DNA of 64,000 bases, from the IMG/VR virus record IMGVR_UViG_3300011187_000002; one strand, given 5' to 3'. The notes below the pieces were generated by a model. The model was not told the DNA's origin. It ran no database searches and was given only the letters and a program-made list of their open reading frames with translations. Origin of the DNA: a virus (taxonomy: Duplodnaviria > Heunggongvirae > Uroviricota > Caudoviricetes). Shown piece after piece: positions 2,012 through 24,126 of this stretch. Each line of letters starts with the position of its first letter. Position 1 is the stretch's first letter. The position numbers were made by a program, and so were the translations under genes.

Positions 2012-2320
2012 TCACTTGTTCGAGCAAATCAAGCACCCTTCCCAGATCATTGGCGTTGCCCCAATCGGGGTCACGGCCATTTTTCTGGTCGTAGCGGTGT
2101 AGGCTTTTTTCCAGTCCGCAGGCAACCGGCCTCGCCAAAAACGTTCTTTTTTGGCATGTACATTGTCAGAAGCACCGATTATCCCACCACCCACTTTTTG
2201 ATCAACAACCGCATAAAGGGTAGAGCTTGCCAATCTAATTAGAGCAAGGATAGGACGGATATGTGGACGGAGGTCTTTCCGGGAGGCCCCCAATTTTATC
2301 AAGCGACTTTCGAGATCCAT
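2012..2320 (-). CDS. Leader-motif protein; 3' part possibly frameshifted
   Basis: ATG 2320 after GGAG; starts MDLESRLIKLGASRKDLRPHIRPIL; a -1 frame 2165-1998 looks more protein-like than the annotated C-terminus. Confidence 0.55.
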   Translation of the reverse strand: MDLESRLIKLGASRKDLRPHIRPILALIRLASSTLYAVVDQKVGGGIIGASDNVHAKKERFWRGRLPADWKKAYTATTRKMAVTPIGATPMIWEGCLICSNK

Positions 2321-2332
2321 CGGGAACTCCAA

Positions 2333-2373
2333 GAAATAAAACGAGGTACGGCATTGTGTCTACCGTACCTCGT
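2333..2373 (-). terminator. Rho-independent terminator-like hairpin
   Basis: Perfect 11-bp IR ACGAGGTACGG/CCGTACCTCGT (2341-2373) followed on the minus strand by TTTATTTC. Confidence 0.65.
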
Positions 2374-2397
2374 ATATAAGCGAATAACCGATGGAAC

Positions 2398-2775
2398 TTA
2401 GAGGAGGGCCTCCTTCAAGTCGCCCACGACACGCTCCATAAAGACATTGGCTTCTTCATTATCCGCACGCATCCAACCGAGGATAACAGCACCTAGCTCG
2501 ATCACAAGACCTTTCGGCAACCGGCCAATAAGGTGATCTTGCATATCCTCCTCATCGGGCCATTCATATCGAAAGACCCGGTGGTCGGATTTCTCTTCCA
2601 TGAGAATCAGGCGGCTTCGAACGAGATCATCCATGAACTCGAAGGTGTTCATAAACTGATTGTACCGCTGACGAAACCTCTTCTGTTCATATTTGGGAAG
2701 CGGCAGGTAAAAGAAAGCAAACTCTGGATAGGAGGGTGAACGATACTGATACAACGCATTAGTCTTGGCCCACAT
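2398..2775 (-). CDS. Hypothetical protein (possible tail assembly chaperone)
   Basis: Likely start MWAKT after GAGAGGGG; size and helical C-terminus resemble chaperones, function is a guess. Confidence 0.45.
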   Translation of the reverse strand: MWAKTNALYQYRSPSYPEFAFFYLPLPKYEQKRFRQRYNQFMNTFEFMDDLVRSRLILMEEKSDHRVFRYEWPDEEDMQDHLIGRLPKGLVIELGAVILGWMRADNEEANVFMERVVGDLKEALL

Positions 2776-2867
2776 AAGCCCCTCTCGGCGAAGTGTTGGA
2801 AATGAAACACTCAACTCCACCAAACACAGAACATAAGTGGATTTTCAATGGAAAGTCGGACCGCGTG

Positions 2868-3311
2868 TCAAGCACCACTCTGGTAAAAGTGGAAATAGAC
2901 GGGCAACTCTTTAAGCCCTGCCTTTTCAGCGGCAACGACGCGGTGGTTTCCCTCCCCGATCTTAGCCTTGCCGTCCTTACCCACAATCACCTGAATGGCC
3001 GTGTTGAAGCCTTCGCTCTGGATGGAATCAACAAGCTCATCAACCACGGGGCGTTTGTACTCACGGTACTTTAGGAGTTCCCGAATAGGGATAGTGCCGT
3101 GGGCGTACATGCTGTTTGACTTACCCCCGGCCCGGAACGTTATTTTGTCCGGGTCGTAAAGTTTCTGTCCGTCCTCAGACCACCGATCAAGGACGTCCTT
3201 AATCGACATGCCCCTCTTGAAATCGTAATACGTCTTTTTGCGTTCTGGAGGCCATGAAGCCGCCATATAGAGGCGGGCCACCCGTCGAGCTAGTTTTGAA
3301 TTATGCGACAT
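2868..3311 (-). CDS. ParB/Sulfiredoxin-like domain protein with RVARLY leader
   Basis: ELVDSIQSEGFNTAIQV...IGEGNHRVVAAEKAGLKELPV matches the ParB/Srx GxHR signature. Confidence 0.8.
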   Translation of the reverse strand: MSHNSKLARRVARLYMAASWPPERKKTYYDFKRGMSIKDVLDRWSEDGQKLYDPDKITFRAGGKSNSMYAHGTIPIRELLKYREYKRPVVDELVDSIQSEGFNTAIQVIVGKDGKAKIGEGNHRVVAAEKAGLKELPVYFHFYQSGA

Positions 3312-3321
3312 CAGGGTCTCC

Positions 3322-3789
3322 TTACTTGTACTGAACGACCGAACCTTCCGGCACCTTTTCTGGGGTCCGAAGTAACATCTTCACCCCTTTGAATATGTGC
3401 AGGACTTTGGGCCTGACAAGGCGTACATCGGATTTCCAGATTACCTCTTCCGGGTATCCGATATCAGGCACATCCGGGGTTTGAAACACGATTGCAACCT
3501 TGTCCCCACCTTTGAGGTGCGTGACCTGTACGCCGGAGCTATAGTGACCCCACACGGTAGATACCGCCTGTACGCCCGCAAGTCCAAACTTTTTGTACGG
3601 AGGATCAGCCAAGAGCTTACCCGAATCAAGTATCTCTTGCGCCCGGTCTGCATAGGTGAAATGCACGAACTCATCGTCCCGTACATTCATCCGGTAAATG
3701 GGGCCACCGTAAAAGGATTCTTCGCCGGTGTCCTTTAACTTTTCCGCCAAGAAAACCCGTGCGACGTGGTTGGCAATTCGTTCTGACAT
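3322..3789 (-). CDS. ADP-ribosyltransferase-like domain protein with HVARVF leader
   Basis: FVHFT..RAQEILDSGKL (H-x-T and IL.SG.L), downstream S and E-V; typical ART-fold pattern. Confidence 0.5.
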   Translation of the reverse strand: MSERIANHVARVFLAEKLKDTGEESFYGGPIYRMNVRDDEFVHFTYADRAQEILDSGKLLADPPYKKFGLAGVQAVSTVWGHYSSGVQVTHLKGGDKVAIVFQTPDVPDIGYPEEVIWKSDVRLVRPKVLHIFKGVKMLLRTPEKVPEGSVVQYK

Positions 3790-4679: not shown

Positions 4680-4694
4680 AACTTGTATCTCCGA

Positions 4695-4931: not shown

Positions 4932-4957
4932 ATAACTTCATCAACTTAGGGTTCCGA

Positions 4958-5236
4958 TTAGCCCCCCAAGTCACTAACGTGTCGCTTGAGGTTTCGGATG
5001 TGATCTTTAAGCTCGTCTTTCAGACGCCGGGCGTTTTGGAGGTCGCCTTCGGTGTTAATCTCACCGACCACGCCTCTGATTTCAGCATCCACGTCCTGAA
5101 GGGTCTTGATCAACTTCTTGACCCGGCCCGGAGTTACCGCTTCCCTATCCAATTCAGCTAGGATAGGACGGAGGTGGGGACGTGATTCTTCACGGTACAC
5201 GTTCAATCCAATAAGTGCGTCTTTTAGATCAGACAT
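4958..5236 (-). CDS. Leader-motif protein, helical
   Basis: MSDLKDALIGLNVYREESRPHLRPILAELDREA. Confidence 0.75.
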   Translation of the reverse strand: MSDLKDALIGLNVYREESRPHLRPILAELDREAVTPGRVKKLIKTLQDVDAEIRGVVGEINTEGDLQNARRLKDELKDHIRNLKRHVSDLGG

Positions 5237-5239
5237 GAA

Positions 5240-5692
5240 TTAGACCCCGTAATTGTTTTTCAGGTACCGCAAAGACTCTTTGGTATCCTTCAGGACCAGT
5301 TCCAACTGATCACGGAGGGTTTCCGCTGCTAAGTCTTTGCTGGGTCCGTCGTCCTCACGGATAAGCCCCTGAACAGCATCATCAAACGTACCGTCCAGTT
5401 CCTGTGATGCCCGATCCATCTTGGATAGGAGGCGATCCATTTTACGGGAAATGGCTGCTTCCTTTTGAAGCTGTGCCAAGACCGGTCGGATATGATCCCG
5501 AAGGTCCGGGCGGTCCGTCCCTAGTTTGATTAAGTCATCCCGAAAGGAATTCTTATCGCTCATGGTATCGTCCTCAGATTCAGCACCCCGAGGGAGTGCC
5601 GGGCAGTAAGAAGGTTGATCTTCCACTGGCCCGTGACACTCCCCATAATCGGAACGAGTCCGCAAGGGTTGGGTTGGATCGTAATTACGCAT
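5240..5692 (-). CDS. Leader-motif protein (motif internal)
   Basis: FRDDLIKLGTDRPDLRDHIRPVLAQLQKEAA. Confidence 0.75.
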   Translation of the reverse strand: MRNYDPTQPLRTRSDYGECHGPVEDQPSYCPALPRGAESEDDTMSDKNSFRDDLIKLGTDRPDLRDHIRPVLAQLQKEAAISRKMDRLLSKMDRASQELDGTFDDAVQGLIREDDGPSKDLAAETLRDQLELVLKDTKESLRYLKNNYGV

Positions 5693-8538: not shown

Positions 8539-8963
8539 TTGACTCCCTTCTTTTGCCGTAACTTCTGAATATATCGTGCGGTAACTTTGCCTGCGGTCAA
8601 GAGCATCTCCGGGGAAAAGACCCCTTTGTGTGGGTTCACCACATCCCGGCCCAGAAACGGCCCGAAATAGCGATCACCTAAAATCTCTTTAGCAAGCGCT
8701 TCTGCCCTATTCTTACATTCGATCGCTTGTTGTGCAATCGCCTCCGCCTCCGCCTTGAATTTATAAAAGCGCATGGCAGCATCGAAAAGTTCCTCTTCGG
8801 TACAATCCAACTCTTGCAAAAGGAAAGGCAAGTCCTCTGTACGACTGAGCAAGGAGGCCACCACGTGCTGGACCGAATCCAGATGCTCCGCCGTCAAGCG
8901 GATGTTCCTTGCCAACTCGTAAACCTTGTTGGCAAAGGGGCTTATGCCTCCTTTCTTGTCCAC
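8535..8963 (-). CDS. Hypothetical coiled-coil protein
   Basis: Overlapping start/stop coupling with both neighbours; C-terminal KVTARYIQK. Confidence 0.6.
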   Translation of the reverse strand: MDKKGGISPFANKVYELARNIRLTAEHLDSVQHVVASLLSRTEDLPFLLQELDCTEEELFDAAMRFYKFKAEAEAIAQQAIECKNRAEALAKEILGDRYFGPFLGRDVVNPHKGVFSPEMLLTAGKVTARYIQKLRQKKGVK

Positions 8964-10039
8964 TATATCACCTGTGGCTTGCGATCGAAATAAATCCGCT
9001 TCGACTCTAACAGCGCCTTGTACATGTGCTTACATACAAAGTTGTTGTTTTCAGGATCTCGGATCTGCGGGGTGTCCAAGGTGCCCCGTGGGTTCTTCGG
9101 CGAATAAAGGTAGTCACCCTTGTATGCGTGGTATTCACTACCCCCGTATCGCCAATGTGGACATGAACAAGACAGCTTCACGTCCGCTTCCCAATAGTGT
9201 CGCTGATCCTCGTCCTCTGGAGGGACCGCCCGAATCTTAACCGTGTAGGTCTTGTTCCCGCTGGTCGCCTTGTACGTAAGGGTGTTCGTTATCTGGTTGT
9301 GATCGCTTTGAAGAAGGCTAACGTCGTTAGCGCGCCGTTCAATGTCACCATCCAACCCTTGGATGATTTCAGTAATCTTCTTGGCCTGTTTAAGCCTCGA
9401 AAACGAAACGCGCACGGGACGGTACTTTAACAGGTACCCCGCAATCACCTCGTGGATCAAAGACTTATCCATTAGTGGGGTGCTGACCTCAACTTCCGGC
9501 AACATATCTTGCGTGATTTCAGGCTTAGTCACGTCCACAGATAGGTCCGAGAAGTCTGTCTCAGCGGGTGGAGGTACTTCGGAGTTAAGCCCCTCGTCGT
9601 CCACCACTTTATCATTGTCGTCGATATAGGTAGGGAGGCCCTGCATCTCTTGGACGTCAACCGTAAGTTCCGCCAAGCGACTCATGTGCTCCAAAGCCAC
9701 ACGACGTGCAACCTTTTCACCCTTGAGGGCCTTATCCAATTCTTTGCGAACAGCCGGGTTAAGGTCGTCAGCGGCGCTCGTAAGCCCGAGCTTCTCTACG
9801 ATGTATGATATCACCGCCATCTGATCCTGCATGTCCTCTAGAGCCGCCTGATAGAGGAAAATCATGTCCCCGGCTTCCTTGTAGATGTGGTCCTTTTTCT
9901 CGGACTCATCCACTAGCGAAATAGCCCGCTCAGTGAGATCTCCTAGTTTGGAGAGATCAATGCGGGCTTCGGAGACGGCCTTTTGCAAATGATCGCAAAG
10001 GACACGGGACAGGTATTTTTTGGCGACCTTACGGTGCAT
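8963..10039 (-). CDS. SWIM-type zinc-finger protein with RKVAKKYL leader
   Basis: LSCSCPHW...VCKH (CxC...CxH). Confidence 0.7.
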   Translation of the reverse strand: MHRKVAKKYLSRVLCDHLQKAVSEARIDLSKLGDLTERAISLVDESEKKDHIYKEAGDMIFLYQAALEDMQDQMAVISYIVEKLGLTSAADDLNPAVRKELDKALKGEKVARRVALEHMSRLAELTVDVQEMQGLPTYIDDNDKVVDDEGLNSEVPPPAETDFSDLSVDVTKPEITQDMLPEVEVSTPLMDKSLIHEVIAGYLLKYRPVRVSFSRLKQAKKITEIIQGLDGDIERRANDVSLLQSDHNQITNTLTYKATSGNKTYTVKIRAVPPEDEDQRHYWEADVKLSCSCPHWRYGGSEYHAYKGDYLYSPKNPRGTLDTPQIRDPENNNFVCKHMYKALLESKRIYFDRKPQVI

Positions 10040-11126: not shown

Positions 11127-11139
11127 TATAAAACGATTA
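11127..11139 (-). promoter_or_regulatory. Candidate phage late promoter TAATCGTTTTATA
   Basis: Matches recurrent intergenic motif TAAT-N3-YTTRTM. Confidence 0.55.
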
Positions 11140-11163: not shown

Positions 11164-12174
11164 TCAGGAGATCATGTGAGCGCAGTTGTAAAGACCATCG
11201 GCTACAGAATCATAGCCTAATGCCTTAACTGTGTGTCCAAGCCAACCTATAGAATTAGCCGCTGTCGGGACGAGATCTTGGGGGTTTTCATCAAAGGCGG
11301 CCCTAAAGACTTCACACGCATTGATGAGTTCGCGGGCGTCCACCATCGCTTCAACCCACTTGATCGTTTTTTGGGGAACACCGTTGACCAGTAAAAGCAA
11401 TTTTTGACGCACCAAGGAAGCTACGTCGTGGAGTCCAGCATGATCTAGGAAAGTTGCTAGTGTGTGGGTTCCAAAAGTGAACAGCGCCCACCGCACGTCC
11501 TCCGAATCCGGCATGGTATCGGAGATCGTGTATAGAAGGGTGCGGGCGTCTTCAGCGAGGTCCATGTCCTTTACGGCAGCCGTCACCGAAGAGTGCATGG
11601 TGCCCATATCCAGATCACCGTTACCAAATGGCCGAACCAAACGACGGGCCTTCAAAAAGTCACCGTCTAGGTATTCGATCCAACCAAACACGTTGGTAGG
11701 GTTCTTGAGCTTTTCCTCGGCGAAACCCTCTTGGGTAAATTTGGCGTGCCGCATTCCGATCGCATTCACGAAACCGGCATTCAGAGTGAGTGTGATATCA
11801 CTTTCGAATTCATCGTCACTTGGGGCTACGCGCACGTCCATATAGAAACGCGGGGCAAGGGGTTCCGTGGTGTCTTTCAGGACAATGTATTTAGAAACCA
11901 CATTGTACTGGACCCCATCCCCACGTTCCAACGCCGACTCTTCGAAATCGACCTTCCGTCCAATTGCTTGATAGAGGTACATTTCGTATTCACGACGAAA
12001 CCCTCTGATCTTTTTGCTCAGACGCTCCGCCTGTTTTTGCAAGGCGTTCATGCGTCTACGGCTATCACCCTGCAGGTTGCAATTAGACATAGCACGGCGC
12101 ACACACCCCTCAAGCTCCTTGCGAAGTTGGGGGTGCGAATACGCCTGTTGTGCTAGCTGGTCAAGATCACTCAT
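11164..12174 (-). CDS. Hypothetical protein with weak leader motif
   Basis: MSDLDQLAQQAYSHPQLRKEL. Confidence 0.65.
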   Translation of the reverse strand: MSDLDQLAQQAYSHPQLRKELEGCVRRAMSNCNLQGDSRRRMNALQKQAERLSKKIRGFRREYEMYLYQAIGRKVDFEESALERGDGVQYNVVSKYIVLKDTTEPLAPRFYMDVRVAPSDDEFESDITLTLNAGFVNAIGMRHAKFTQEGFAEEKLKNPTNVFGWIEYLDGDFLKARRLVRPFGNGDLDMGTMHSSVTAAVKDMDLAEDARTLLYTISDTMPDSEDVRWALFTFGTHTLATFLDHAGLHDVASLVRQKLLLLVNGVPQKTIKWVEAMVDARELINACEVFRAAFDENPQDLVPTAANSIGWLGHTVKALGYDSVADGLYNCAHMIS

Positions 12175-13052
12175 TAAGCGGTCTCGTGCATTAGTTTCTC
12201 GTACTCACGCTCCCAACCGGACGGGCGGCTACCCATCACGCCGAGATAAAGGAGGGTACCCTTTTTCGGGCTGTAAGCACGCCACTTCGAAGTCCGCTGT
12301 TGCGGGTTGATCTTGAAGTAGAAGTTGCCTTGCTTGCTGTAGGCAGCCATCTGGGGAACACCGGAGTAGTAATAAGGTACTCGGTCTTCACCAACCTGAT
12401 CACCGCGCTCGATGTAGTTCTCTACCTCTTGCATCGCTTCTTGTGTGGGCGGACGCTCCTTGGAACTGAAATAAATCATCTCCAACATCCGGCCACTGCT
12501 TTTCATGTCGTAGCTGGAATCATCCTTGTAAATACCCACGCCTCGGGCTTTCATCGCATCTGGAATGCGCACAGGTGCTCCGCTCCCGAATTGAACAAGC
12601 GCATCTCCGTGATCACTATCATCGCTCAGAGACGAATCTTCACGGGGCGTCTTTACGACGGTACCAACCTTCTGGTCAAACTTCTTGTAGATATCCATCG
12701 TATGGCCGATCTTGTGCTTCTTCGCTTTGATCTTGACCATATCGCCCACCTGAAAACGGGGGCCGCCACGCGATTGCGACGCAGGAGCCCGAGTTTCCAG
12801 ATTGAAAGTACGCTCCAGCATATCCTGTGCATCCTTTTCCGACACTGGACTACGTTTCTGGGTCAGCGTAACCCAGTTGATGAAACGCACCGTATCTTCC
12901 GAATATGCAATCTTGTTCCGGGAAGCTACACGGGTTTGGCGCATCTCCGCATAGATGGAATCCAGAACAGGACCCCAATCTTCACGGAGATCCGGGTTCT
13001 TAGAAGCGAATTTCAACAGACCGTCATACATGTTAGGCAGGTAAAGCGACAT
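12174..13052 (-). CDS. Leader-motif protein with KOW/SH3-like segment
   Basis: GLLKFASKNPDLREDWGPVL...TRVAS..KIA; RFQVGDMVKI. Confidence 0.65.
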   Translation of the reverse strand: MSLYLPNMYDGLLKFASKNPDLREDWGPVLDSIYAEMRQTRVASRNKIAYSEDTVRFINWVTLTQKRSPVSEKDAQDMLERTFNLETRAPASQSRGGPRFQVGDMVKIKAKKHKIGHTMDIYKKFDQKVGTVVKTPREDSSLSDDSDHGDALVQFGSGAPVRIPDAMKARGVGIYKDDSSYDMKSSGRMLEMIYFSSKERPPTQEAMQEVENYIERGDQVGEDRVPYYYSGVPQMAAYSKQGNFYFKINPQQRTSKWRAYSPKKGTLLYLGVMGSRPSGWEREYEKLMHETA

Positions 13053-13669: not shown

Positions 13670-13682
13670 GACAAAAACATTA
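13670..13682 (-). promoter_or_regulatory. Candidate late promoter TAATGTTTTTGTC
   Basis: 46 nt upstream of dps, back-to-back with the plus-strand sigma70 promoter. Confidence 0.5.
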
Positions 13683-14415: not shown

Positions 14416-15003
14416 ATGCCCAAAAAATACAAGCGTAAGATGGCCAAAAAACGCAAACTTCCCAACCGCGTGAACTTCGGTGTAGGATGCTACAACCCGA
14501 GTAATAAAGTGCGGCTGGAACTGAAACCGGAATGGGACGAACCCAAGGCATCTAAAAAGTGCCCCGGTTGCGACGGGAAAGGCCGCTACGCAGGTTTGCG
14601 TGTACTCGAAGACCCCTGCAAACAATGTGGCGGGTCCGGGAAAGTAGCCAACAAAAGTAGCCGACTTCCCGACGACATACGCACATCCCTCTACACCGGG
14701 AAAGATATGATGGTGCGGTGGTTCAGGGATATCAACAAATACATGCGCTCGGGTACCGGTAGAAACATCCGGCTGGTTTTCGAACTACCAAAGAACGGCG
14801 AAAAGCATCCCCTCATGGTTTGTGTGGGGGATGCTCCCGACCAAGACTTTCCGTTGGGTTGGGCGGCCCCTTACCGCAAGTACACCAAAGATGAAAGCCC
14901 TCGGATCTTGTCCGAAAAAATACTCAACTCCAGCGAACGTCACAGGATGGTAAAGCAAATTACCCGTGACGACTTGCCTCCAGAGCTTAGAGACCTGCTT
15001 TAG
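14416..15003 (+). CDS. Basic protein with DnaJ-type zinc finger
   Basis: CPGCDGKG...CKQCGGSG (two CxxCxGxG); alternative start at 14389. Confidence 0.7.
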   Translation: MPKKYKRKMAKKRKLPNRVNFGVGCYNPSNKVRLELKPEWDEPKASKKCPGCDGKGRYAGLRVLEDPCKQCGGSGKVANKSSRLPDDIRTSLYTGKDMMVRWFRDINKYMRSGTGRNIRLVFELPKNGEKHPLMVCVGDAPDQDFPLGWAAPYRKYTKDESPRILSEKILNSSERHRMVKQITRDDLPPELRDLL

Positions 15004-15689
15004 TAGCCCATCTCGCTAATCATGATGGATGCAACCTTCTTGGCGAGGGCTTGCGTCCCTTGATTATCTTTGAGCTTACCCACCACTTTCGTGTCGCTTT
15101 GTAAAATCAACCGTGCGCCGTCGTAGTACAGCGTAAAGAACCCTGCGCGGAAACCGTTGCCCGTACTAGGGTCTTCTTCGTAAAAGACTACGGACGCCTC
15201 GTGGTAGCCGTCACGGCGTCTGGAGGTGTCTACACCATCGTCCTGTACGTTCGCATCCTGCGAAACCTTTTTCACGACCTCTTTGGCTGCGACATACAGT
15301 ACGTCGTGTAGGTACTCCGCGATCAGCGAAGCCGGTCCTCCGGGCATGGCTGTCTTGACCGAAGCGTTTCGTTGCTTTGCAAGAGGGCGTACAGAATCTT
15401 CACGCACGATGCGATAGGGGCTATCCGCATCGAACTGTACGGGAACCTTGCCGCTGTTCAGGGAATCAACCCCGTGCATACCCCACAGATCAGCGGGAGG
15501 TACCCATGCCGACATCCAAGTACCTCGGGTGATCTCCGCTTCTGCCCAACCACCACGCCAAGAACGACTTGGACCTTCCCAATACGGAAGGCCGTTTACT
15601 CTTTTGGCGGCCAGCAACTGTCGGATATGCGGGCGTAGGGCTTTGTTAGATGCCCCCAAACGAATCAACTTGGTATACAGATCAGCCAT
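15000..15689 (-). CDS. Leader-motif protein
   Basis: MADLYTKLIRLGASNKALRPHIRQLL; internal VKTAM. Confidence 0.75.
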   Translation of the reverse strand: MADLYTKLIRLGASNKALRPHIRQLLAAKRVNGLPYWEGPSRSWRGGWAEAEITRGTWMSAWVPPADLWGMHGVDSLNSGKVPVQFDADSPYRIVREDSVRPLAKQRNASVKTAMPGGPASLIAEYLHDVLYVAAKEVVKKVSQDANVQDDGVDTSRRRDGYHEASVVFYEEDPSTGNGFRAGFFTLYYDGARLILQSDTKVVGKLKDNQGTQALAKKVASIMISEMGY

Positions 15690-15692: not shown

Positions 15693-16223
15693 TTATCCTA
15701 ATTTCTTTACGGTTTTGACAATGCCTTGCACCACGTGGGCATCCCGGTGCGTATCCAAATAGTAATCACCCCAACTCTCGTCCTTCATATACCGATCCCG
15801 ATCATCTCTGTATTCGGCCATGAGGTCCCCTTTACGATCGAGGAAAAGATGGACCGTAAAGGTTTCGGGGCCAGAACCACTAATCGTGTGGACCAGTAAA
15901 TGATCCTCATGTCGGTTAACGAAAAAGCCGATACGATCAAGGGCTGTCCACACCTCTTTAAGGATACCTTCGATGCGCCGTGCATCCATTCCAGAACCTG
16001 TACGCTCCAGTGCATGGATGATGGACTTCAGGTGGGGTCGTAGGTCTTCGTGAGAGGCCCCCAGCTTGATTAATTGGTCTTTTAGGGACACGGACGCCTC
16101 CTTGTTCTCGTAACGCGGCTCCGCGTATTCTGGATGCTCCTCGTACTGAGGACAATCGTCACGTTTGTTACGACGGGTATCCAGCAAACATCGCAATTTT
16201 GCCGACTCAAATGCTTCGGACAT
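15693..16223 (-). CDS. Leader-motif protein (motif internal)
   Basis: ENKEASVSLKDQLIKLGASHEDLRPHLKSII. Confidence 0.75.
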   Translation of the reverse strand: MSEAFESAKLRCLLDTRRNKRDDCPQYEEHPEYAEPRYENKEASVSLKDQLIKLGASHEDLRPHLKSIIHALERTGSGMDARRIEGILKEVWTALDRIGFFVNRHEDHLLVHTISGSGPETFTVHLFLDRKGDLMAEYRDDRDRYMKDESWGDYYLDTHRDAHVVQGIVKTVKKLG

Positions 16224-16262: not shown

Positions 16263-16275
16263 GACAAGTAAATTA
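16263..16275 (-). promoter_or_regulatory. Candidate late promoter TAATTTACTTGTC
   Basis: 40 nt upstream of the 16223 start; TAA is also the stop of the upstream gene. Confidence 0.45.
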
Positions 16276-16845
16276 TTGGCTTACTAAGACTTCCACAGCG
16301 GAGATCACATCTTCGGGTTGATCCGGGTCTTTACCTACTAGTTCGGCAATCGCCACATAGGCTTTACGCTTGGCGGCTTTCAGAGCGGGGCGTTCGATAC
16401 CAGCCAATTCGCATACCTTATCGGAAAGGGGTTCCCCCACTTTACGAAATACACCGCGAAGAGCGCCCTCCAGTGTAGAAGCCACCTCGGGCTTCGCGGA
16501 CTCACCACCATCTATATGATCTATGTTCCACCAATAGGTCGCTTTCCAGTTGCCCTTTACCTCACGAATTTCCACGCACTCCATACCCGCATCGAAATAG
16601 GTCATGTATTTACCGTACTCCTCGTACCATTCGAGATCGGTAAGGGCTTCCAAACGTTCATGCGTCGTCATACCTATGACGCCCGATTCCAAGCACTGTT
16701 CCATGAGGCCATTTTCTTCGATGATCTCCATTAGATCGGCACTGGACAGCTTGTTAAACTGTTTGATGGTTTTGTCACGGGCTTCACCTCTAATCGCGGG
16801 GTCTACAGCTAGCTCGACGATTGTTTCCCGGTCTTTGATTTCCAT
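16273..16845 (-). CDS. Hypothetical early protein
   Basis: SD TAGGAG; own sigma70 promoter, placed downstream of the capsid terminator. Confidence 0.75.
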   Translation of the reverse strand: MEIKDRETIVELAVDPAIRGEARDKTIKQFNKLSSADLMEIIEENGLMEQCLESGVIGMTTHERLEALTDLEWYEEYGKYMTYFDAGMECVEIREVKGNWKATYWWNIDHIDGGESAKPEVASTLEGALRGVFRKVGEPLSDKVCELAGIERPALKAAKRKAYVAIAELVGKDPDQPEDVISAVEVLVSQ

Positions 16846-17029: not shown

Positions 17030-17917
17030 TTATCGCTGGACAACCAAGCGGACGAGGCCGCGTGGGTTGAATGCTCCGATACCGAGGTTCTCGAATACAG
17101 AGAAACCGATCGTGCGGGCACGAGGGTTGTCTGCGGAGAGCACGGTAAGCTCAGTACGGACGGGGATACGTCCGAACATCTCAGGCTCGCAACATACGTA
17201 TACGAAACCTGCGGGGACGAGGCGGCTCAGGATGATCTGGGCTCCCCAAAGGGTAGCCTGAAGACCGGTCTTGAGCAGGGTAGCCTGCGTCTCGATGTCG
17301 AGGATCTCACGACCGAACTTACGGATGTCCGCATAGTCCTTGGCGTGCATGTAGATTCGAGCAACACGAAGGTCGTGCTTTTCGATCTCGGCGAAGGCAT
17401 CGGCCAGAACAGCGGAACTGATCGGGGCAATAACCTGAAGGTCAGGGTTGACCTGTCCGGGGATCGAATCGAATCCGTTCGTAGCAATCGAATCCAGAAC
17501 GGCGAAGACACGCTCGTCTTCCGCTGCCTGAATCTGAGCTTTTGCAAGCTGCTGTGAACGCTCGATGAGGTCGAAGCGACGTTCCTTGATCTGCGTGATC
17601 GGAATCTCCGGGTTCGAAGCAATCTCGAACAAGGGGAAGATCACACGACGAGGCTTGGTGATAGCGAGAATGTTCTCGCCTTCTTCACCGACCACATAAG
17701 CGGTCACGTCGGGGTCTTTATCGTAGATCGGCAACGCTCCGTCAGGAAGTTGCTCGACTAAGAATGTGCGGCGTCCAACTGCCGAATAATCTCGGCGGCT
17801 GCGAAGCGGTTGGATCATCGAAGCAGCAAGTCTAGCTCGCCCTGCGGCGGTCTTGATGTGCCGACTAATGATCTCTTGCTTGGCCGCGTTATCCAATTGC
17901 GTGGTGTTGTCAGACAT
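17030..17917 (-). CDS. Major capsid protein (HK97 fold)
   Basis: Follows protease, scaffold and decoration genes; huge-phage MCP motifs RRDYSAVGRRTF, FEIASNP, ENLGIGAFNPRG; strong SD and terminator. Confidence 0.85.
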   Translation of the reverse strand: MSDNTTQLDNAAKQEIISRHIKTAAGRARLAASMIQPLRSRRDYSAVGRRTFLVEQLPDGALPIYDKDPDVTAYVVGEEGENILAITKPRRVIFPLFEIASNPEIPITQIKERRFDLIERSQQLAKAQIQAAEDERVFAVLDSIATNGFDSIPGQVNPDLQVIAPISSAVLADAFAEIEKHDLRVARIYMHAKDYADIRKFGREILDIETQATLLKTGLQATLWGAQIILSRLVPAGFVYVCCEPEMFGRIPVRTELTVLSADNPRARTIGFSVFENLGIGAFNPRGLVRLVVQR

Positions 17918-17934: not shown

Positions 17935-18567
17935 TTAGATACGCTGGTCAATGACGATTTCTGCATGTACCGAATCCGGTACTACCTTCACGACACCCAT
18001 AGCAAGGGGTGTACCACCGCCACCGGGCGTGCTTGCCTCAAAGGCATTTGCAGCATCGGTGAGATTGGTCAGGTAACCGTTGACAGAGGCGTAAACCTTG
18101 TCTCCAGACTGCCAATCAAGGGGTACATTGCCGTTGGCGGTAGCCAGATCATACGTCTCATAGAGACGAAGACCGTAGGTGCCTTGGCCGGACAGGTACG
18201 GAGCCTGACCGGATGCCGGTGCCGGGGTGTTTTCGTATGCGTTGCCCGCCGCGTCGTTAATAAACAGACCGAGGGGGGTTACCGAACCACCAGCAGGTGC
18301 TGCGGATACGGGTCCACCGACCATGCCGTTACCAGCATCGGGTCGAGTGAAACATACGGAACCACCAAGTACACCGCGCTTGGGTGCAGTCGGTAGTGTG
18401 TCAGATTTAGTCGCGCCAGCCGTACCAGAATCGACGGGAGGGTTCGTCTGTGTGAACCCGTCAGTGGTAAGCTGTGCTGCGAACGAATTGCGGTTTCCTA
18501 CATACAGGATACGTAGGGCGCTGCTGCTTTCGGTGAAATCACCGCTCGCTTGTCCGGGAAGTGCCAT
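17935..18567 (-). CDS. Capsid decoration/minor head protein
   Basis: Directly upstream of MCP; PLGLFINDAAG, GDKVYASVNGYLT...MGVV pattern of head decoration proteins. Confidence 0.7.
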   Translation of the reverse strand: MALPGQASGDFTESSSALRILYVGNRNSFAAQLTTDGFTQTNPPVDSGTAGATKSDTLPTAPKRGVLGGSVCFTRPDAGNGMVGGPVSAAPAGGSVTPLGLFINDAAGNAYENTPAPASGQAPYLSGQGTYGLRLYETYDLATANGNVPLDWQSGDKVYASVNGYLTNLTDAANAFEASTPGGGGTPLAMGVVKVVPDSVHAEIVIDQRI

Positions 18568-18643: not shown

Positions 18644-20197
18644 TTAGTTTCCGAAGACCTTGGATACGTCGGGAGCACTATCCCACAGCTTCGACAAACC
18701 ATCGTCGCCCGTGGAAGAAGCCTCTTTCACCCGCCCGAGTTGTGATACTCCTTTACTACCTTTTGAAGCCTTTTTGCCCTGCTGTCCGTCTACCGAATAG
18801 TGACGGTTCATAAGGGCCTGAAGCGTAGCATCGTCCTCTTCGAGGAGAGCTTCTGCATCCAGATTGTCAAGGGAAGGCTCAAGATCAATACCGATCTCAG
18901 AAGCTTCGCTTGCACCTGCTCCGTGGTCCATGTCGTTAAGCATGGCGTCGAGATCTTCATCAAGCATCTCGTCGGCGGCGATATCATCGCCCATGTCCAT
19001 ACCCATGTCGCCACAAGCATCAGCATCCATGTCCTCATCGTCTTCGTCCTCTTCGGACCGACGCTGCATGTCACGGAGTGTTTGCTGTAGAACCGGGTTG
19101 GCTTGAAGATCGATGCCTGCTTCCGCCATTAGATCGGCGAGCATGGACTCCTTGTCGGCGTCCTCATCATCCTCATCGGCGTCCTCGTCGTCCGAAGCAT
19201 CCTTCGCTTCGTCTTCTTCGGCGTCGTCCTCATCTTCCTCGTCGTCTTCGGCAACCTTGGGCTGCTGTCCGAACATACGAGCAAGTTCTTGGGCGATCGC
19301 TTCGCGAACGCTGGACTCTTTGGACTCTTCTTCGTCCTCATCGTCCTCATCATCCGAAGCGTCCTTCGCTTCGTCTTCTTCATCATCATCCGAAGCATCC
19401 TTCGCTTCGTCTTCTTCCTCGTCCTCATCTTCTTCGGCAACTTTGGGCTGTCCGAAAAGTTTGGCGAGTTCTTCGGCGACCATCTGACGAACGCTGGCTT
19501 CTTTTCCTTCGCCTTCGTCGTCTTCATCGTCGTCGTCATCATCCGAGGCGTCTTTAGCCTCATCTTCGTCAGCATCCTCATCGTCCCCTTCTTCTTCGGC
19601 CATCATGACGCGAAGCATTTCATCGGGACTCAGGGAAGCTTCTTTATCCTCGCCACCTTCGTCGTCGCCTTCCTCGGCGTCTTCTTCAGCGATGCGTTCC
19701 AGTAGCTCAGAAAGCCGAAGGGAAGTTGCAACCACTGCGTCGTCGGGAAGAGGCATAAGGTCAAGGGCCTGCTCGGCGATCACATCGTCACCAGCTTGCG
19801 GAAGAATAGCCTGTGCGATACGAACGCACTGAAGGGCTTTCTTCTCGAAGTGACGCTGCATCTTGGCGAGACGAACCTTGGCCTCACGTCCGTCCAGCTT
19901 ATCGCCGGGACCAAACGTGTCGCCGTTGTCGTATGCATCACCGCTATTCCACGCATCCACGTCCTTATGGTCGTGTGTGGTGTCTAGCATGTCAGGCATA
20001 CCAAGTTCATTACGTTCTGTTCCGTCGAGATCCTCAAGATCATCAACGGGTTCCTCTGCCCATACTGCCGGATCGCCAATCATGTAGTCCTCTGTGGGTA
20101 CATGAGTACGATCTTGGTTCATTGTGTACGGATCGGCGTTCTTACGACGTTCCGCTTGACGGCGGCGGGCTTTCCACGAGAGTCGATCTCTACTCAT
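18644..20197 (-). CDS. Prohead scaffolding/core protein, highly acidic
   Basis: Lies between protease and capsid genes; D/E-rich repeats; C-terminal SKLWDSAPDVSKVF. Confidence 0.7.
   Translation of the reverse strand: MSRDRLSWKARRRQAERRKNADPYTMNQDRTHVPTEDYMIGDPAVWAEEPVDDLEDLDGTERNELGMPDMLDTTHDHKDVDAWNSGDAYDNGDTFGPGDKLDGREAKVRLAKMQRHFEKKALQCVRIAQAILPQAGDDVIAEQALDLMPLPDDAVVATSLRLSELLERIAEEDAEEGDDEGGEDKEASLSPDEMLRVMMAEEEGDDEDADEDEAKDASDDDDDDEDDEGEGKEASVRQMVAEELAKLFGQPKVAEEDEDEEEDEAKDASDDDEEDEAKDASDDEDDEDEEESKESSVREAIAQELARMFGQQPKVAEDDEEDEDDAEEDEAKDASDDEDADEDDEDADKESMLADLMAEAGIDLQANPVLQQTLRDMQRRSEEDEDDEDMDADACGDMGMDMGDDIAADEMLDEDLDAMLNDMDHGAGASEASEIGIDLEPSLDNLDAEALLEEDDATLQALMNRHYSVDGQQGKKASKGSKGVSQLGRVKEASSTGDDGLSKLWDSAPDVSKVFGN
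19170..19570 (-). repeat. Intragenic coding repeats in the scaffold gene
   Basis: TCCGAAGCATCCTTCGCTTCGTCTTC-type units (EAKDAS) and a duplicated module 19248-19320/19433-19501 (SVR..A.ELA..FGQPKVAE). Confidence 0.85.
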
Positions 20198-20358: not shown

Positions 20359-21879
20359 TTAGTTAAGAAATTTAGCCCTTTCGAGCAAAATTCCTGCTTC
20401 TCGGCGGTTTATCTTACGGCCAAGCGACCGTATACATGCCTTCAAAAACTGTCGAAGATCACCATAATTGCTGGCGCTTCCGACCTTTTGAAGACTCAGA
20501 TAAAACTCTGGGGGTAGGGATTCTCGTTTACCGTCTCGGTCGTGCAGGTACATTGCTGTTACAATGTCTGTATTCGCGAACCGGTGCTTGTGTTTGAAAA
20601 AGGTGTTTGGATCTTGAAGCATGTAAAGAATGCGGAACGCATTTTTGGTACGGCCACCCAACTCATTAGCGTACCTTTCCGCAAAAATCATATATGAATG
20701 GTGTACCGAATCGTTGGGTGCGCGTTCAGCTTCGGGCATTGCATTGGGTTCTTCTTGCTCGCGAAGCTCTTCTTTCAACTCTTTTTCAATACGCTTTTTG
20801 ATCTTTTCTTTCAGCTTGTCCGACACATCGTCGATCAAACCCACTTCTTCCTCGACCTCCTCTTCGACCTCTTCCTCTTCGAAGTCGTCAAACGCTTGAC
20901 GCTGAGCAAAGCTATTGAATGCCGACGATACGGCCTCGTTCACTTCGGTCCTGATCTGAGCGCTTGCGGTCTTTAGGAAATACTTGGTCCAATCCTCAGT
21001 GGGATTGACCGTGGATTTAGTGTGTGCCTCTTGGATCAAGCTCTGTAGCTTATCTTCTTCATACGGCGTCGGCTCTTTGGTCGACGGCTTGTTCAGATCA
21101 AGGATGTTGCGCATGACCGCCCCTTTGAATGCGGGGTTGCCTACCCAAGATGCCTCGATGAACTTAACAGACTCAGGGTCCGTGTGGTGGCCGCACAGTT
21201 CAGCGACAACGCGGATCTTACCTTCCGGGCCGATGAACTTGTTACCCTTCTCATACTTGACGTGGTGGCAAAGCTGTGGCTCGTCAATGGCTACGTTGCC
21301 GCACTTGGTGCAAGCCGAAAAAGCAATCGTGCATCCCATCGAAAGGGTGTTAAGCTCCCCCGATTCGATCTTAGCTACCAGATCCTTGTGCTTGCGGTCC
21401 GTAGCGACGAGAATGTCGACGTACACGCTGTCCCCGAGATCACGGGCAACGGCGTCGATAATTTTGCCCTTGCTTAGTTCCGGGATCTGGATATGCTCTA
21501 CATAGTTCTCGGCTCCCACAAACGTCTTGTATGTAGACAAGAGTAGTTTGCGCTCCCAAGCATCGCCGTTCTGGTTGATGTACTTGGAGCAGCCGGGCTT
21601 GATCAGATAGTCCGTATACGGTCTATTGATCGTATGCCCATCATCGGTCGTAACCTCACCCGTCTTGCTGTTAGGGGCCTCGTCAACGTCCACAGAGGCG
21701 ATAATAGTGCAGTGGGTAAGGAGGTACTTATCCGGGCTGTAGTTCTCGATCGAAATGGCAGATGTACGGCTACCAAAGTCAACCCCCGCAAGGAGCTTGC
21801 TTTGCCGATACGTGTTCCACCCCTCAAGTCCTACACGGGGCGACTGAACAACTGCGTTAGCGTATTTTACAAAAGCCAT
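20359..21879 (-). CDS. Prohead maturation protease (HK97/assemblin-like serine protease)
   Basis: NYVEH, TLSMGC, FIEASWVGNPAFKGA motifs, CxxC...C.H insert; upstream of scaffold. Confidence 0.75.
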   Translation of the reverse strand: MAFVKYANAVVQSPRVGLEGWNTYRQSKLLAGVDFGSRTSAISIENYSPDKYLLTHCTIIASVDVDEAPNSKTGEVTTDDGHTINRPYTDYLIKPGCSKYINQNGDAWERKLLLSTYKTFVGAENYVEHIQIPELSKGKIIDAVARDLGDSVYVDILVATDRKHKDLVAKIESGELNTLSMGCTIAFSACTKCGNVAIDEPQLCHHVKYEKGNKFIGPEGKIRVVAELCGHHTDPESVKFIEASWVGNPAFKGAVMRNILDLNKPSTKEPTPYEEDKLQSLIQEAHTKSTVNPTEDWTKYFLKTASAQIRTEVNEAVSSAFNSFAQRQAFDDFEEEEVEEEVEEEVGLIDDVSDKLKEKIKKRIEKELKEELREQEEPNAMPEAERAPNDSVHHSYMIFAERYANELGGRTKNAFRILYMLQDPNTFFKHKHRFANTDIVTAMYLHDRDGKRESLPPEFYLSLQKVGSASNYGDLRQFLKACIRSLGRKINRREAGILLERAKFLN

Positions 21880-21909
21880 TGGATCACCAATTTGGTTTAA
21901 GCCTGTCTA

Positions 21910-22272
21910 TTAGCGGCCTGTCTTATCAAGAAGATCGTAAAAAGCGCCTTTTAAGGCATTCTTGCGGATCCCCGCCAATTCCTCACCGCCACGTAGATTA
22001 TCAAAATGGATAGACATGGTTAGCGCATCGGGGGGATCTACATCTTCCTCCAACCGGACCTCTACCCATTTTGCATTAAGATCTTCGTGCGAAACACGAA
22101 CGTGATCCCAACCAACGCTTTGAATGTACCAGCCGTCCCTTTTCAAATCGGAGGCAAGTTTTTTATACGTCGAATGATCAACAGCGGCGAGCAGGTACCG
22201 GAGGTGCTTACGCAATTTCGGCTTAGATTTGCCCAACTTGACCAGTTGATCTTTCAGGTCCATAGTGGTCAC
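21910..22272 (-). CDS. Leader-motif protein
   Basis: MDLKDQLVKLGKSKPKLRKHLRYLL...KKLAS. Confidence 0.75.
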   Translation of the reverse strand: MTTMDLKDQLVKLGKSKPKLRKHLRYLLAAVDHSTYKKLASDLKRDGWYIQSVGWDHVRVSHEDLNAKWVEVRLEEDVDPPDALTMSIHFDNLRGGEELAGIRKNALKGAFYDLLDKTGR

Positions 22273-22685
22273 GTCATGAAATTGGAAAGCGAATCGTTGA
22301 TCTTGTCGAAAAGGTCTTCGAGCGACTCGTGTTGACCGGTTTCGAACTTAATAAACTGTGCGTCCTGAAAAGACGTCCCTGCATGAAGCGTCGTTTCGAT
22401 CTCGTAAGCACTGCCTCGATGAACAATGTCAAATTTTAGCCGCCACGTGAAATGGCTCCGACTGCCTTCGATGTACCCTAGATCCTTTTTCGTAATCGTA
22501 GTTTTATAGTCAAAGCTCTCGACGAAATTATCGGTCAATTCCTGCAGGAATTGGTTCCTGACGAAATCGAAAATCCGCACATCGAGCGTGCTAAGGTTGG
22601 TAGCTAGTTTAACTAGTGGTAGTAGGCGTGATCGTCTGGAAGGGCTTCTATAGGCCAGTCGGATGATACTGTCGCGTAAACTCAT
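22269..22685 (-). CDS. Leader-motif protein
   Basis: MSLRDSIIRLAYRSPSRRSRLLPLVKLAT. Confidence 0.7.
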   Translation of the reverse strand: MSLRDSIIRLAYRSPSRRSRLLPLVKLATNLSTLDVRIFDFVRNQFLQELTDNFVESFDYKTTITKKDLGYIEGSRSHFTWRLKFDIVHRGSAYEIETTLHAGTSFQDAQFIKFETGQHESLEDLFDKINDSLSNFMT

Positions 22686-22703
22686 CCGTCTGCCTCGCAA
22701 TCA

Positions 22704-23474
22704 TTATAGCCACTCGTTAAATGCTTTCGCCGGGTCCGATACACTAGGACTCCATCCAAGCTGTTCCTCCGCCTCTTCACGGGCTGCATCATCGAGCGAG
22801 TCGAGGATGTCCGCTGGCTTAATCAAGAACAGGCATTCCCGGCACGCATAGAGCTTCGTCCACTTTTTGTAGATCGTTTGCTCTAGCTCAACGCTCTTGC
22901 ACCGGGGACAATGAAAACATCCGGTATCCAACTCCTGTTGCGTAGGCACGTACTGGCGTCCTTTCTCTTTCCAGTACATTGCTTTACGAATTTGTTCAGG
23001 AGCTTCGAAAGCCGTCTTCACGGCATGTTTGATCTCGAAATCCGAAAACTCGCCCATATACCGCTTGTAAATCGTGTGGTACGTATCCATCTGCTCAATG
23101 CCTTGCTCACAAAAGTGATTGGCAGTGAGATAAAGGTGGGATACGCGCTGGCGGTAATGGCGGGCTAGGCTTTTAGCTAAGTCGTGTGAACACATGGCGG
23201 TTCTTTGATCTTGATCATCCATGAATTCTACCGGGTCATCGGGACCGTCTTCAGCACCCGGTGTTTCAGCCGGTGCCAACTCTTCGGGGGTGATACGTTC
23301 GTTACCCCACCCGAAATCTACATCGACAAACCCAATGCCTCGGTGGACTTTCGTCACTACGCCAACATGGGGGGATCTCCGCATCCGGTGCGGATCCACA
23401 TAATACACCCGGTCCCCAACTTCGAATCGGGTAGCCAGTTGCTGGTGGTCTATGAAAGATCGCTTACCGGTCAT
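22704..23474 (-). CDS. SH3/KOW-like plus zinc-ribbon head-associated protein
   Basis: RFEVGDRV; CPRC...CREC. Confidence 0.65.
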   Translation of the reverse strand: MTGKRSFIDHQQLATRFEVGDRVYYVDPHRMRRSPHVGVVTKVHRGIGFVDVDFGWGNERITPEELAPAETPGAEDGPDDPVEFMDDQDQRTAMCSHDLAKSLARHYRQRVSHLYLTANHFCEQGIEQMDTYHTIYKRYMGEFSDFEIKHAVKTAFEAPEQIRKAMYWKEKGRQYVPTQQELDTGCFHCPRCKSVELEQTIYKKWTKLYACRECLFLIKPADILDSLDDAAREEAEEQLGWSPSVSDPAKAFNEWL

Positions 23475-24126
23475 TGAGAAGTCCCTGTCGTCGTTGACGC
23501 CATCGACCAAAATCCTTATCCTTCAGGTGACGGAAAGGGGACATCGACTGGATGAACATGTCAGCAGCCGATAATGTCGAATCCCTTCCCCCGGAAGCCA
23601 TAAAGTTGATATCGTTGACCGTATCCGTCACAGATAGAGGGTTTCGAACATCCACTCGGTAACGCATTTTCGAAGACGAACTGCCCACATGATCTTTAAC
23701 CATCACATCAACAGCGAATTCGGACGCTACCCATTCTTCCGGGTCGGTCGAAAAGTATTCTGGCTTCCCGACCTTGACCGTTAGGCCATACGACCCAAGC
23801 TCTTTGCCGCCTCCTTCGAGGAAAACATAGAACTCACGTGCCGCTTTTCGCACATGCGTCAAGATACGTTCGTTCAGGGATACGAATTCGGCAAAAGCCT
23901 CATCGTACCTTTCCGTCCCGATCGCATCTTTCCACCGTGGATCACGAGTATCCGTAACCCAATCAACCTCCATACGCTCATTGATGAGCGTACCGACCAT
24001 TTTCGCCTCTTGTGTAGCAACGGACCCCAGCGCCTTAATGGCCAGCTTCCGAAGAAGCAGGCGCAAATGCGGGCGCAAATTAGGGTTCGCCGATCCAAGG
24101 CGAATAAGTCGGTCACGAAGGTTCAT
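23464..24126 (-). CDS. Leader-motif protein
   Basis: Start MNLRDRLIRLGSANPNLRPHLRLLLRKLA after AGGTGG. Confidence 0.75.
   Translation of the reverse strand: MNLRDRLIRLGSANPNLRPHLRLLLRKLAIKALGSVATQEAKMVGTLINERMEVDWVTDTRDPRWKDAIGTERYDEAFAEFVSLNERILTHVRKAAREFYVFLEGGGKELGSYGLTVKVGKPEYFSTDPEEWVASEFAVDVMVKDHVGSSSSKMRYRVDVRNPLSVTDTVNDINFMASGGRDSTLSAADMFIQSMSPFRHLKDKDFGRWRQRRQGLLNDR

Follow-up and report, generated by a model that had tools for sequence, protein, structure and literature searches.

Why should small proteins with no other resemblance to one another, encoded among the head genes of a phage, all open with the same peptide? The question is raised by a 64,000-nucleotide stretch of viral DNA (Caudoviricetes; IMG/VR record IMGVR_UViG_3300011187_000002), hereafter called the window, in which nine minus-strand genes located between 2.0 and 24.1 kb begin with a common helix-Pro-helix peptide of ∼28 amino acids (aa), hereafter called the tag. 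The first-pass annotation of this DNA had taken the peptide for a portable leader that directs diverse cargo to the prohead and is cleaved off at maturation. We evaluated this proposal by computational analysis of the window, of related loci (L numbers) and genomes (G numbers), and of database proteins that carry the tag (P numbers).

One peptide on nine unrelated proteins

All nine strong copies that had been reported were indeed present, each on the minus strand (Table 1). The tag is a module of ∼27 to 30 residues, composed of two short amphipathic helices joined at a conserved Pro, with the core L-[KR]-x-x-[LI]-[IV]-[KR]-L-[GA]-x-x-x-P-x-L-R-x-x-[LI]-x-P-[ILV]-L. When a profile of the nine tags was compared with 1,458 six-frame segments of the window, it retrieved only those nine and the start of the 12174-13052 gene (E value [E] of 0.0018), the next-best match having an E of 0.32. 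In leave-one-out searches, the seven copies of the "LIKLG" type were recovered with E of 1e-5 to 1e-12 and the two of the "IIRLAY/IIRFAY" type with E of 1.7e-3 and 0.088. The latter two are supported at ∼4e-9 and 8e-9 by the profile of the wider family described below, and all nine window proteins matched the iterated family profile with E of 1e-9 to 1e-13. The annotation had also listed two weaker copies, one of which stood: we consider the start of 12174-13052 a decayed tag, because a clear tag occupies the corresponding position in its homologues from two related loci (L030 and L033). The other, in 11164-12174, was not significant (E of 1.4; 3.6 bits). A further look-alike, at the start of 16273-16845, had no statistical support.

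The proteins downstream of the tags had been described as completely different from each other. In agreement with this, no pair of the nine bodies was similar by BLASTP once the first 36 residues had been removed (all E > 0.3). The window tags are 40% identical at the amino-acid level and 45% at the nucleotide level; for 74% of the matching residues, the codons differ. Because of these codon differences, the conservation of the tag is old and lies at the level of the peptide, so that neither an RNA signal nor a duplication of recent date accounts for it. Net charges of -2 to +6 were calculated for the window tags, most of which are basic.

The tags lie 2 to 7 residues from a start codon preceded by a Shine-Dalgarno-like sequence in all nine genes. 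In several of them, the start of the longest open reading frame (ORF) is wrong (15693-16223, 21910-22272, 23464-24237, and 2012-2332), and the likely starts are GTG 16091, ATG 22263, ATG 24126, and ATG 2320, respectively, each behind a Shine-Dalgarno-like sequence, which for GTG 16091 is AAGGAGG with a spacing of 5 nucleotides. Independent gene calls in the ESM Atlas gave exactly the same lengths for the proteins starting at ATG 24126 and ATG 22263. The start of 5240-5692 is ambiguous, since ATG 5563 yields an N-terminal tag and ATG 5692 places the tag 43 aa into the protein.

The tag family and its portability

We built a family profile from 41 tags of the window and related loci (alignment A2) and compared it with 1.84 billion proteins. 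It matched 4,306 cluster representatives at E of ≤1e-3 and 320 at E of ≤1e-10. For 316 tags, we obtained the consensus L-R-x-x-[LV]-I-[RK]-L-A-[HY]-x-x-P-E-L-R-x-x-L-L-P-L-L, with 84 to 97% conservation at each of the positions L, I, L, A, P, R, and P. In the main window variant, G replaces A and one extra helical turn precedes the end of the tag. The 150 best family members all contain 2 to 5 copies, with an N-terminal copy in 120 of them, a copy at the very C terminus in 54, and 173 copies at internal positions. Some members are mini-proteins of 63 to 99 aa made of two tags and a linker, such as P0032 (99 aa) and P0063 (86 aa). The tag matched no Pfam family in a profile search and had no meaningful match among PDB sequences, and literature searches yielded no paper on the motif or on a tag common to huge-phage proteins. 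The tag represents an extensive family of portable modules, so far undescribed, that is found in uncultivated huge phages.

Structure predictions, of moderate confidence, are consistent with a two-helix hairpin distinct from the body. In the model of the Dps-like protein encoded by 13064-13624, the tag forms helices at residues 5-13 and 18-32 with a break before the Pro (predicted local distance difference test score [pLDDT] of 64 to 84) and stands apart from the body. The single-sequence fold of P0032 contains two hairpins, 3-14/16-32 and 70-83/85-98, with a pLDDT of ∼70 to 76 and a predicted template-modelling score (pTM) of 0.41.

That Dps-like protein allowed the tag to be followed on a body of recognizable fold. 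The AlphaFold2 model (pLDDT of 92 overall and ≥96 for the body) shows a four-helix Dps bundle from residue 40; its best Foldseek matches in the PDB are all Dps proteins (template-modelling score by target of 0.77 to 0.80), and the protein matches phrog_3636 (E of 7.7e-13). The residues H66, H78, D93, and E97, of the ferroxidase type (His/Asp/Glu), are invariant in 41 Dps-like homologues. The body carries an N-terminal tag in the window, starts directly at the bundle, untagged, in L002 (98% capsid identity), and precedes two downstream tags in L008. Among 53 Dps-like database homologues, the tag was found only on the window's own protein and in one degenerate case, and five or six carry another short leader, of the "RVAxR[YF]" type. 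The 12174-13052 family varies in the same manner, with the tag N-terminal in L030 and L033, C-terminal in L035 and L037, decayed in the window and L007, and absent from L003 and L004. Since the module moves between the ends of one body and can be swapped for another leader, it behaves as an independent functional unit. The tag is therefore portable between unrelated bodies, as the annotation had supposed.

The second leader, [SA]-x-[RK]-V-[AL]-x-R-[YF]-[LV], is N-terminal and shorter than the tag. In the window, it opens several further head-block proteins, those of 355-636, 2868-3311, 3322-3789, and 8963-10039 (minus strand). It also opens four consecutive genes after the capsid gene of L021 (10953, 11239, 11847, and 12518), a locus of genome G005, in which the main tag was not found, and it is present on Dps-like homologues in other phages (proteins P0158, P0160, P0161, P0166, and P0168). 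The 10-residue profile of this leader has little power, giving 13 matches from 7 loci, which include internal sites of large proteins.

Besides Dps, searches of the tagged bodies against Pfam and PHROGs returned nothing, and no internal-protein family matched any tagged protein. A weak match to HicA (E of 0.085) was not borne out, and the ESM Atlas neighbours of the 15000-15689 and 21910-22263 bodies were uninformative. A Pfam census of 97 multi-tag proteins detected almost no domains, the exceptions being a single pentapeptide-repeat protein and a few zinc ribbons. P0003 and P0007, both multi-tag proteins, are encoded on short contigs that contain arrays of tag genes and no recognizable head genes, and P0014 had no relative in 185,579 prokaryote genomes. 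Several multi-tag proteins (P0003, P0007, P0014, P0024, and P0063) display other recurring short motifs between acidic or basic linkers, namely SRFEEGxxADPTxNMSxEDxxxW...DKFK, EPYMKGxFTxQExxELxDxQ, and GCEKLPEGPMRDNCEKK; the loci listed for these motifs are L014 12911-14416, L021 14824-16023, and L010 17428-19533. The SRFEEG... motif also ends a conserved head-block protein in the tag-less loci L014 and L021. Taken together, these short motifs resemble a lexicon of linear elements for proteins of the capsid interior.

Tagged genes and the head block

In the window, the tag is associated with the head block. Nine of the 33 genes at 2.0 to 24.4 kb are tagged, versus none of the 40 packaging and replication genes beyond 24.4 kb (Fisher p = 4e-4), which include those for the terminase, exonuclease, clamp, clamp loader, UvsX, RecD2, ligase, and ribonucleotide reductase (RNR). 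The claim that the tag is confined to the head-assembly block and spares replication genes therefore holds for this window. Confinement to late genes had also been put forward as a check on the family as a whole. In G001, a complete 437-kb relative, the tags are concentrated near head genes, 13 of 17 falling within 30 kb around the capsid gene (binomial ∼1e-12), but in the genome LR745208.1, which is likewise rich in tags, they are scattered. Genome G004 has no tag.

A regular component of the head block can itself carry the tag. Proteins of the conserved large post-portal family (cluster 5; 960 to 1371 aa), whose position directly after the portal was observed in L014 and L021 only, end in a tag in eight loci (L010, L012, L036, L046, L048, L058, L059, and L062). 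A profile made from those eight C-terminal ends alone retrieved ordinary N-terminal tags with E of 1e-5 to 1e-9. The 702-aa protein of the window is an untagged homologue of this family: its residues 1-74 are 58 to 61% identical, and its residues 594-700 align ∼150 aa before the L059 tag, so that the window protein stops short of the tag. The neighbouring 24152-24568 corresponds to the DE-x-YM module that follows the large post-portal protein. The occurrence of the tag on a regular head-block component in relatives is the best available reason to place its partner in the assembling head, and it suggests that the small tagged proteins have borrowed the anchor of that component.

The layout of the post-portal region differs between relatives. 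Some encode a single protein of 875 to 1320 aa ending in a double DE-x-YM motif and ...GRPLAP (L014 2896-5520), and others encode a large protein that ends in a tag, followed by a separate DE-x-YM protein (L012 1-3315 and 3356-3757). The window encodes the 702-aa protein and a 138-aa DE-x-YM protein (24643-26751 and 24152-24568, minus strand). No Pfam or PHROG family was matched by the post-portal proteins of the window and its relatives.

Nearly all window genes are on the minus strand. The region from 36 to 64 kb is devoted to DNA metabolism (5'-3' exonuclease, clamp loader, methylase, sliding clamp, SbcC-like protein, UvsX, RecD2, NAD ligase, and RNR), and the packaging and head genes encode, in transcription order, the terminase, the portal, the 702-aa protein, a small acidic protein, a Zn-ribbon protein, a protease-like protein, and the scaffold-position, decoration-position, and capsid proteins (Table 1). 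Three tag genes are located between the post-portal proteins and the protease, and two follow the capsid gene past one gene (16273-16845). Compared with the capsid protein of the window, that of Bacillus phage G is 39% identical, that of Tunturiibacter phage Tunturi_5 47%, and that of the uncultured 485-kb LR745208.1 82%; relatives on IMG/VR contigs, which reach 619 kb, number in the hundreds. On these grounds, we consider the window part of an uncultivated huge phage.

Three further features of the window were recorded. The Zn-ribbon protein (22704-23510), with a C-terminal CxxC...CxxC, belongs to cluster 6, whose 54 members occur in loci with and without the tag, and it is conserved in position between the post-portal proteins and the protease. 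The protease-like protein (20359-21879) contains the acidic stretch EEVEEEVEEEV, followed by a C-terminal domain of ∼110 aa. A candidate promoter motif, TAATNNNYTTRTM, occurs five times, always on the coding strand, versus 0.53 occurrences expected (11127-11139, 13670-13682, 16263-16275, 24633-24645, and 36069-36081, minus strand); it lies directly upstream of the tag genes 13064-13624 and 15693-16091 (two copies) and of 24152-24568 (one).

Table 1. Tagged genes and head-block genes of the window
Feature	Coordinates	Strand	Remarks
Tagged gene 1, 102 aa from ATG 2320	2012-2320	-	Tag ∼2228-2320 (MDLESRLIKLGASRKDLRPHIRPILALIRLA); body of no assigned function
Tagged gene 2, 92 aa	4958-5236	-	Tag ∼5138-5236; body short, helical, probably coiled-coil
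Tagged gene 3, 107 aa if the start is ATG 5563	5240-5563	-	Tag ∼5456-5557; ORF open up to ATG 5692
Gene with decayed N-terminal tag (LLKFASKNPDLREDWGPVL)	12174-13052	-	Homologues clearly tagged, at either end, or untagged
Tagged gene 4, Dps-like mini-ferritin, 186 aa	13064-13624	-	Tag residues 5-32 ("IIRFAY" type), linker 33-39, bundle from 40
Tagged gene 5, 229 aa	15000-15689	-	No fold assigned to body
Tagged gene 6, 132 aa, N-terminal tag	15693-16091	-	Start GTG 16091 behind AAGGAGG at 16103-16097
Major capsid protein, HK97 type	17030-17917	-	Phage-G-like
Decoration-position protein	17935-18567	-	
Acidic scaffold-position protein, untagged	18644-20197	-	34% D+E, eight K[DEK]AS, two 27-aa helical repeats
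Prohead protease-like protein, 506 aa	20359-21879	-	Protease region ∼ residues 95-298, then acidic linker and C-terminal domain
Tagged gene 7, 117 aa	21910-22263	-	Between Zn-ribbon protein and protease
Tagged gene 8, 138 aa, "IIRLAY" type	22269-22685	-	Its family tagged in 5 of 6 members
Zn-ribbon protein, 268 aa	22704-23510	-	
Tagged gene 9, 220 aa	23464-24126	-	Insertion between DEPYM-motif protein and Zn-ribbon protein
Acidic protein with DE-x-YM (DEPYM) motif, 138 aa	24152-24568	-	Homologous to module after, or fused to, large post-portal protein in relatives
Large post-portal head-block protein, 702 aa, charged, untagged here	24643-26751	-	Homologues in 8 related loci end in C-terminal tag
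Portal protein	26745-28508	-	
Terminase large subunit	29111-31120	-	First of these genes in transcription order

Docking, cleavage, and other possible roles

We propose that the tag is a docking handle that binds one common partner in the assembling head and recruits unrelated proteins, probably to the prohead interior, a reading to which we give about an even chance. The tag would fold as a small hairpin of amphipathic helices, with its conserved hydrophobic face and its Arg/Lys positions forming a protein-protein interface. It would dock its bearer on one common site that is available during head assembly and that may vary between lineages; this site may lie in the variable central part of the scaffold, on the post-portal proteins, or on other tags. 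Unrelated small proteins, including the Dps-like mini-ferritin, would thus become part of the prohead interior together with the large post-portal protein. Both the binding to a head component and the packaging are steps that we infer.

Several observations weigh against this proposal. The tag was not found in the cultured phages of the INPHARED set, and phage G and Tunturi_5 lack it. Four relatives whose capsid protein is 83 to 85% identical to that of the window have no tag in 286 to 448 kb, and a fifth has a single one in 619 kb; the tag is therefore dispensable for this head type. Many tag-less relatives have a large post-portal protein that is fused to the DEPYM module and untagged. The capsid protein is an unlikely receptor, since it hardly varies and is shared with tag-less relatives, and the range of charges among the tags means that electrostatic docking on the acidic scaffold provides no uniform explanation. 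Finally, in LR745208.1 (485 kb; loci L083-L089), no more than 2 of the 11 tags lie close to the capsid gene, the other 9 being located among small genes of no assigned function, some beside a methylase gene and an RNR-like gene. This unannotated GenBank entry was the only named public phage record found to contain the tag.

We searched for a partner among the head-block proteins. None of 77 scaffold-position proteins in related loci carries the tag; they have the end motif LSKLWxSAPDVSxVFG instead. Tags are present in 13 of 22 loci with acidic, Q-poor scaffolds and in 2 of 37 with Q-rich scaffolds, a correlation that we did not count as independent evidence because it follows phylogeny. The 27-aa repeats of the window scaffold (KEASVRQMVAEELAKLFGQ...) were considered as a docking site and rejected, as they are restricted to the window, its identical twin L001, and, in one copy, L002, and thus constitute no family-wide receptor. 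A prediction of the scaffold-tag complex (alignments A3 and A2) scored 0.00; it was run without controls and is not used as evidence. Several head-block genes were present only in tag-bearing loci, all of them limited to close relatives of the window and thus confounded by kinship. A self-BLAST of six-frame ORFs from tag-less loci, aimed at a replacement leader, was swamped by low-complexity off-frame ORFs. As to the scaffold-position protein itself (18644-20197), its two helical repeats are KEASVRQMVAEELAKLFGQPKVAEEDE and KESSVREAIAQELARMFGQQPKVAEDDE, and its relatives have the common ends ADPYxMNQ... and ...LSKLWxSAPDVSxVFG.

The first-pass annotation had assumed a leader of the phage T4 kind, which would enter the prohead core with its cargo and be removed by the protease at a K-x-A just after the tag. 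The position of the nine window copies, all at the extreme N terminus, is as this model would have it, and so is a tendency among the 316 family tags, 30 to 42% of which are followed by K at +18 and A at +20. Furthermore, K-x-A-S precedes 37 to 39% of internal tags, where a cut would expose an "S-L-R..." N terminus resembling the natural ones, and the scaffold-position protein contains K[DEK]AS motifs (eight in the window, six in L031), as expected of a scaffold that is chopped up. However, [KR]xA[SA] is not enriched in the head proteins of the window relative to replication proteins once the scaffold is excluded (12 in 8,139 aa versus 13 in 10,535 aa), so that the [KR]-x-A motif noted after the leader survives as a tendency, and as a cleavage site it is suggestive only. 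The protease-like protein matched no solved structure by sequence, and hence no solved protease. More importantly, a tag at the C terminus cannot be separated from its body by a site that follows the tag, tags are often internal or present in 2 to 5 copies, homologous bodies are tagged at either end, and the two-tag mini-proteins, such as P0032 and P0063, would not survive the loss of their tags. Cleavage of the tag by the prohead protease was thus not supported as a general feature, and we doubt that it is obligatory. The C-terminal and internal tags and the two-tag mini-proteins would argue for a retained docking module over a cleavable leader, a model that we consider unlikely.

The tag could also dispense with a separate receptor. 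If tags paired with each other, hairpin to hairpin, into a small helical bundle, multi-tag proteins would build a cross-linked hub or internal core and single-tag proteins would join it as clients, which would explain the absence of a standout receptor gene; the 2 to 5 tags in all of the 150 best family members and the existence of tiny tag-linker-tag proteins fit this idea, as does a hydrophobic core that, judging from the sequence logo, is too small to stabilize a 27-residue hairpin alone. Yet the window encodes single-tag proteins only and no multi-tag hub, and the P0032 fold, with its low pTM, displays no confident tag-tag packing, which is weak evidence either way. We regard self-association as rather improbable. 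The address might instead lie outside the capsid: the tag may direct its bearer to a phage-made compartment or filament, to the membrane, to a target in the host, or to a chaperone or protease adaptor by which stability is timed. The nine tag genes of LR745208.1 that are far from the capsid gene, some of them next to replication-type genes, are what such an address would predict, and almost all tagged bodies lack an assigned function. This reading, which appears distinctly improbable to us, is at odds with the strong concentration of tag genes in the head block of the window and of G001, with the tag that ends a post-portal head-block protein in eight loci, and with the two tag operons that lie behind a candidate promoter motif common to other head-block genes. 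We think it very improbable that the tag acts as a miniature helix-turn-helix for nucleic-acid binding, by which tagged proteins would coat phage DNA or travel with it. Its Arg/Lys positions are conserved, the R after the Pro being nearly invariant, most window tags are basic (up to +6), and one cargo resembles the DNA-protecting protein Dps; nevertheless, three of the nine have a net charge of zero or below, hydrophobic residues (L, I, L, L, L, L) make up the conserved face, as in a protein-protein interface, and no DNA-binding family was matched in Pfam or the PDB. That there is no functional tag at all, and that chance similarity, recent duplication of paralogues, or a 5' RNA-level signal accounts for the pattern, seems hardly conceivable: apart from the shortness of the motif, nothing favours it, and the leave-one-out statistics, the unrelated bodies, the codon differences, and the C-terminal and internal copies among thousands of family members all contradict it.

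How does the proposed docking handle compare with known systems? The capsid-targeting sequence (CTS) of T4 is ∼10 residues long and is removed by gp21 after L/I-x-E. The window tags resemble it as a short N-terminal peptide common to unrelated proteins of a large myovirus, i.e., a modular address, and in their proposed destination, the prohead interior or scaffold core. They differ from it in their length of ∼28 residues, their predicted two-helix hairpin, and the lack of sequence similarity; moreover, tags also occur at C-terminal and internal positions and in multiple copies, so that the strictly N-terminal location seen in the window breaks down in the wider family. T4 carries the CTS on its internal proteins IPI-III and Alt (Mullaney and Black 1996, cited in PMC9024508 and PMC10052503). 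Packaging has been demonstrated in T4, whereas the tag is known here from sequence alone.

For DarB of phage P1, ∼30 N-terminal residues suffice to bring a protein, including a reporter, into the capsid (PMC9024508). This signal is N-terminal, foldable, and similar in length to the tag, but it was shown experimentally and is present on a single protein, while the tag is found on many bodies and has no sequence relation to it. Encapsulin targeting peptides tether diverse cargo, including ferritin-like proteins, inside an HK97-fold shell (PMC11202242). As with the tag, the peptide sits at one end of the cargo (C or N) behind a flexible linker, and the ferritin-superfamily cargo parallels the Dps-like protein. 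However, encapsulin peptides are shorter and extended and bind a cleft of the shell P-domain, and the encapsulin is a cellular compartment without portal, scaffold, or DNA, whereas the capsid gene here is accompanied on its flanks by genes for portal, terminase, protease, and scaffold. The near-invariant capsid protein is also present in tag-less relatives, which is indirect evidence against the capsid as receptor.

Head proteins of phiKZ and SPN3US have N-terminal propeptides of 20 to 254 residues, which are removed at A-x-E according to mass spectrometry, and the majority of the SPN3US head proteins (42) undergo no cleavage (PMC10052503). These propeptides resemble the tag as N-terminal extensions on head and ejection proteins of giant phages that may direct their bearers into the prohead, but they are not one shared sequence. 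The scaffolding protein of P22 ends in a coat-binding helix-turn-helix domain of ∼30 residues that is amphipathic and largely basic. It is thus a helix-loop-helix of similar length that serves as a docking element in capsid assembly; it differs in being part of the scaffold, whereas the scaffold-position protein here is untagged and the module is found on many unrelated proteins. No similarity to the P22 scaffold was detected when the tag profile was compared with PDB sequences. By these comparisons, the tag belongs to none of the T4 CTS, P1 DarB, encapsulin, and phiKZ/SPN3US systems; it is unrelated to them in sequence, longer, predicted to be folded, position independent, and often multicopy.

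New here are the C-terminal tag on a post-portal head protein, the leader swap on Dps-like cargo, the codon evidence, a genome with scattered tags, and the arguments against obligatory cleavage. Capsid-internal, possibly injected proteins are known for a handful of cultured phages, and the rules by which they are loaded are essentially those of T4 and P1. If the tag addresses another site or self-assembles, it would still define a large unnamed module family that deserves a database entry. If the tag is a loading handle, capsid-internal proteins would become predictable from sequence across thousands of uncultivated huge phages, small genes of these phages that are otherwise uninterpretable would become readable, and cargo sets would turn over by simple gain and loss of the tag, which would also provide a compact, position-independent means to place foreign proteins in very large capsids. 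The Dps-like cargo would then be a striking parallel to the ferritin-like cargo of encapsulins, which share the capsid fold. More tentatively, it is possible, though we would not count on it, that huge phages use a few interchangeable peptide handles for the capsid interior, such as the tag and the "RVAxR[YF]" leader, the handle being position independent and borrowed from the post-portal anchor, and its gain or loss switching packaging. Were this the case, the packaged, possibly injected proteome of thousands of uncultivated phages could be read from sequence.

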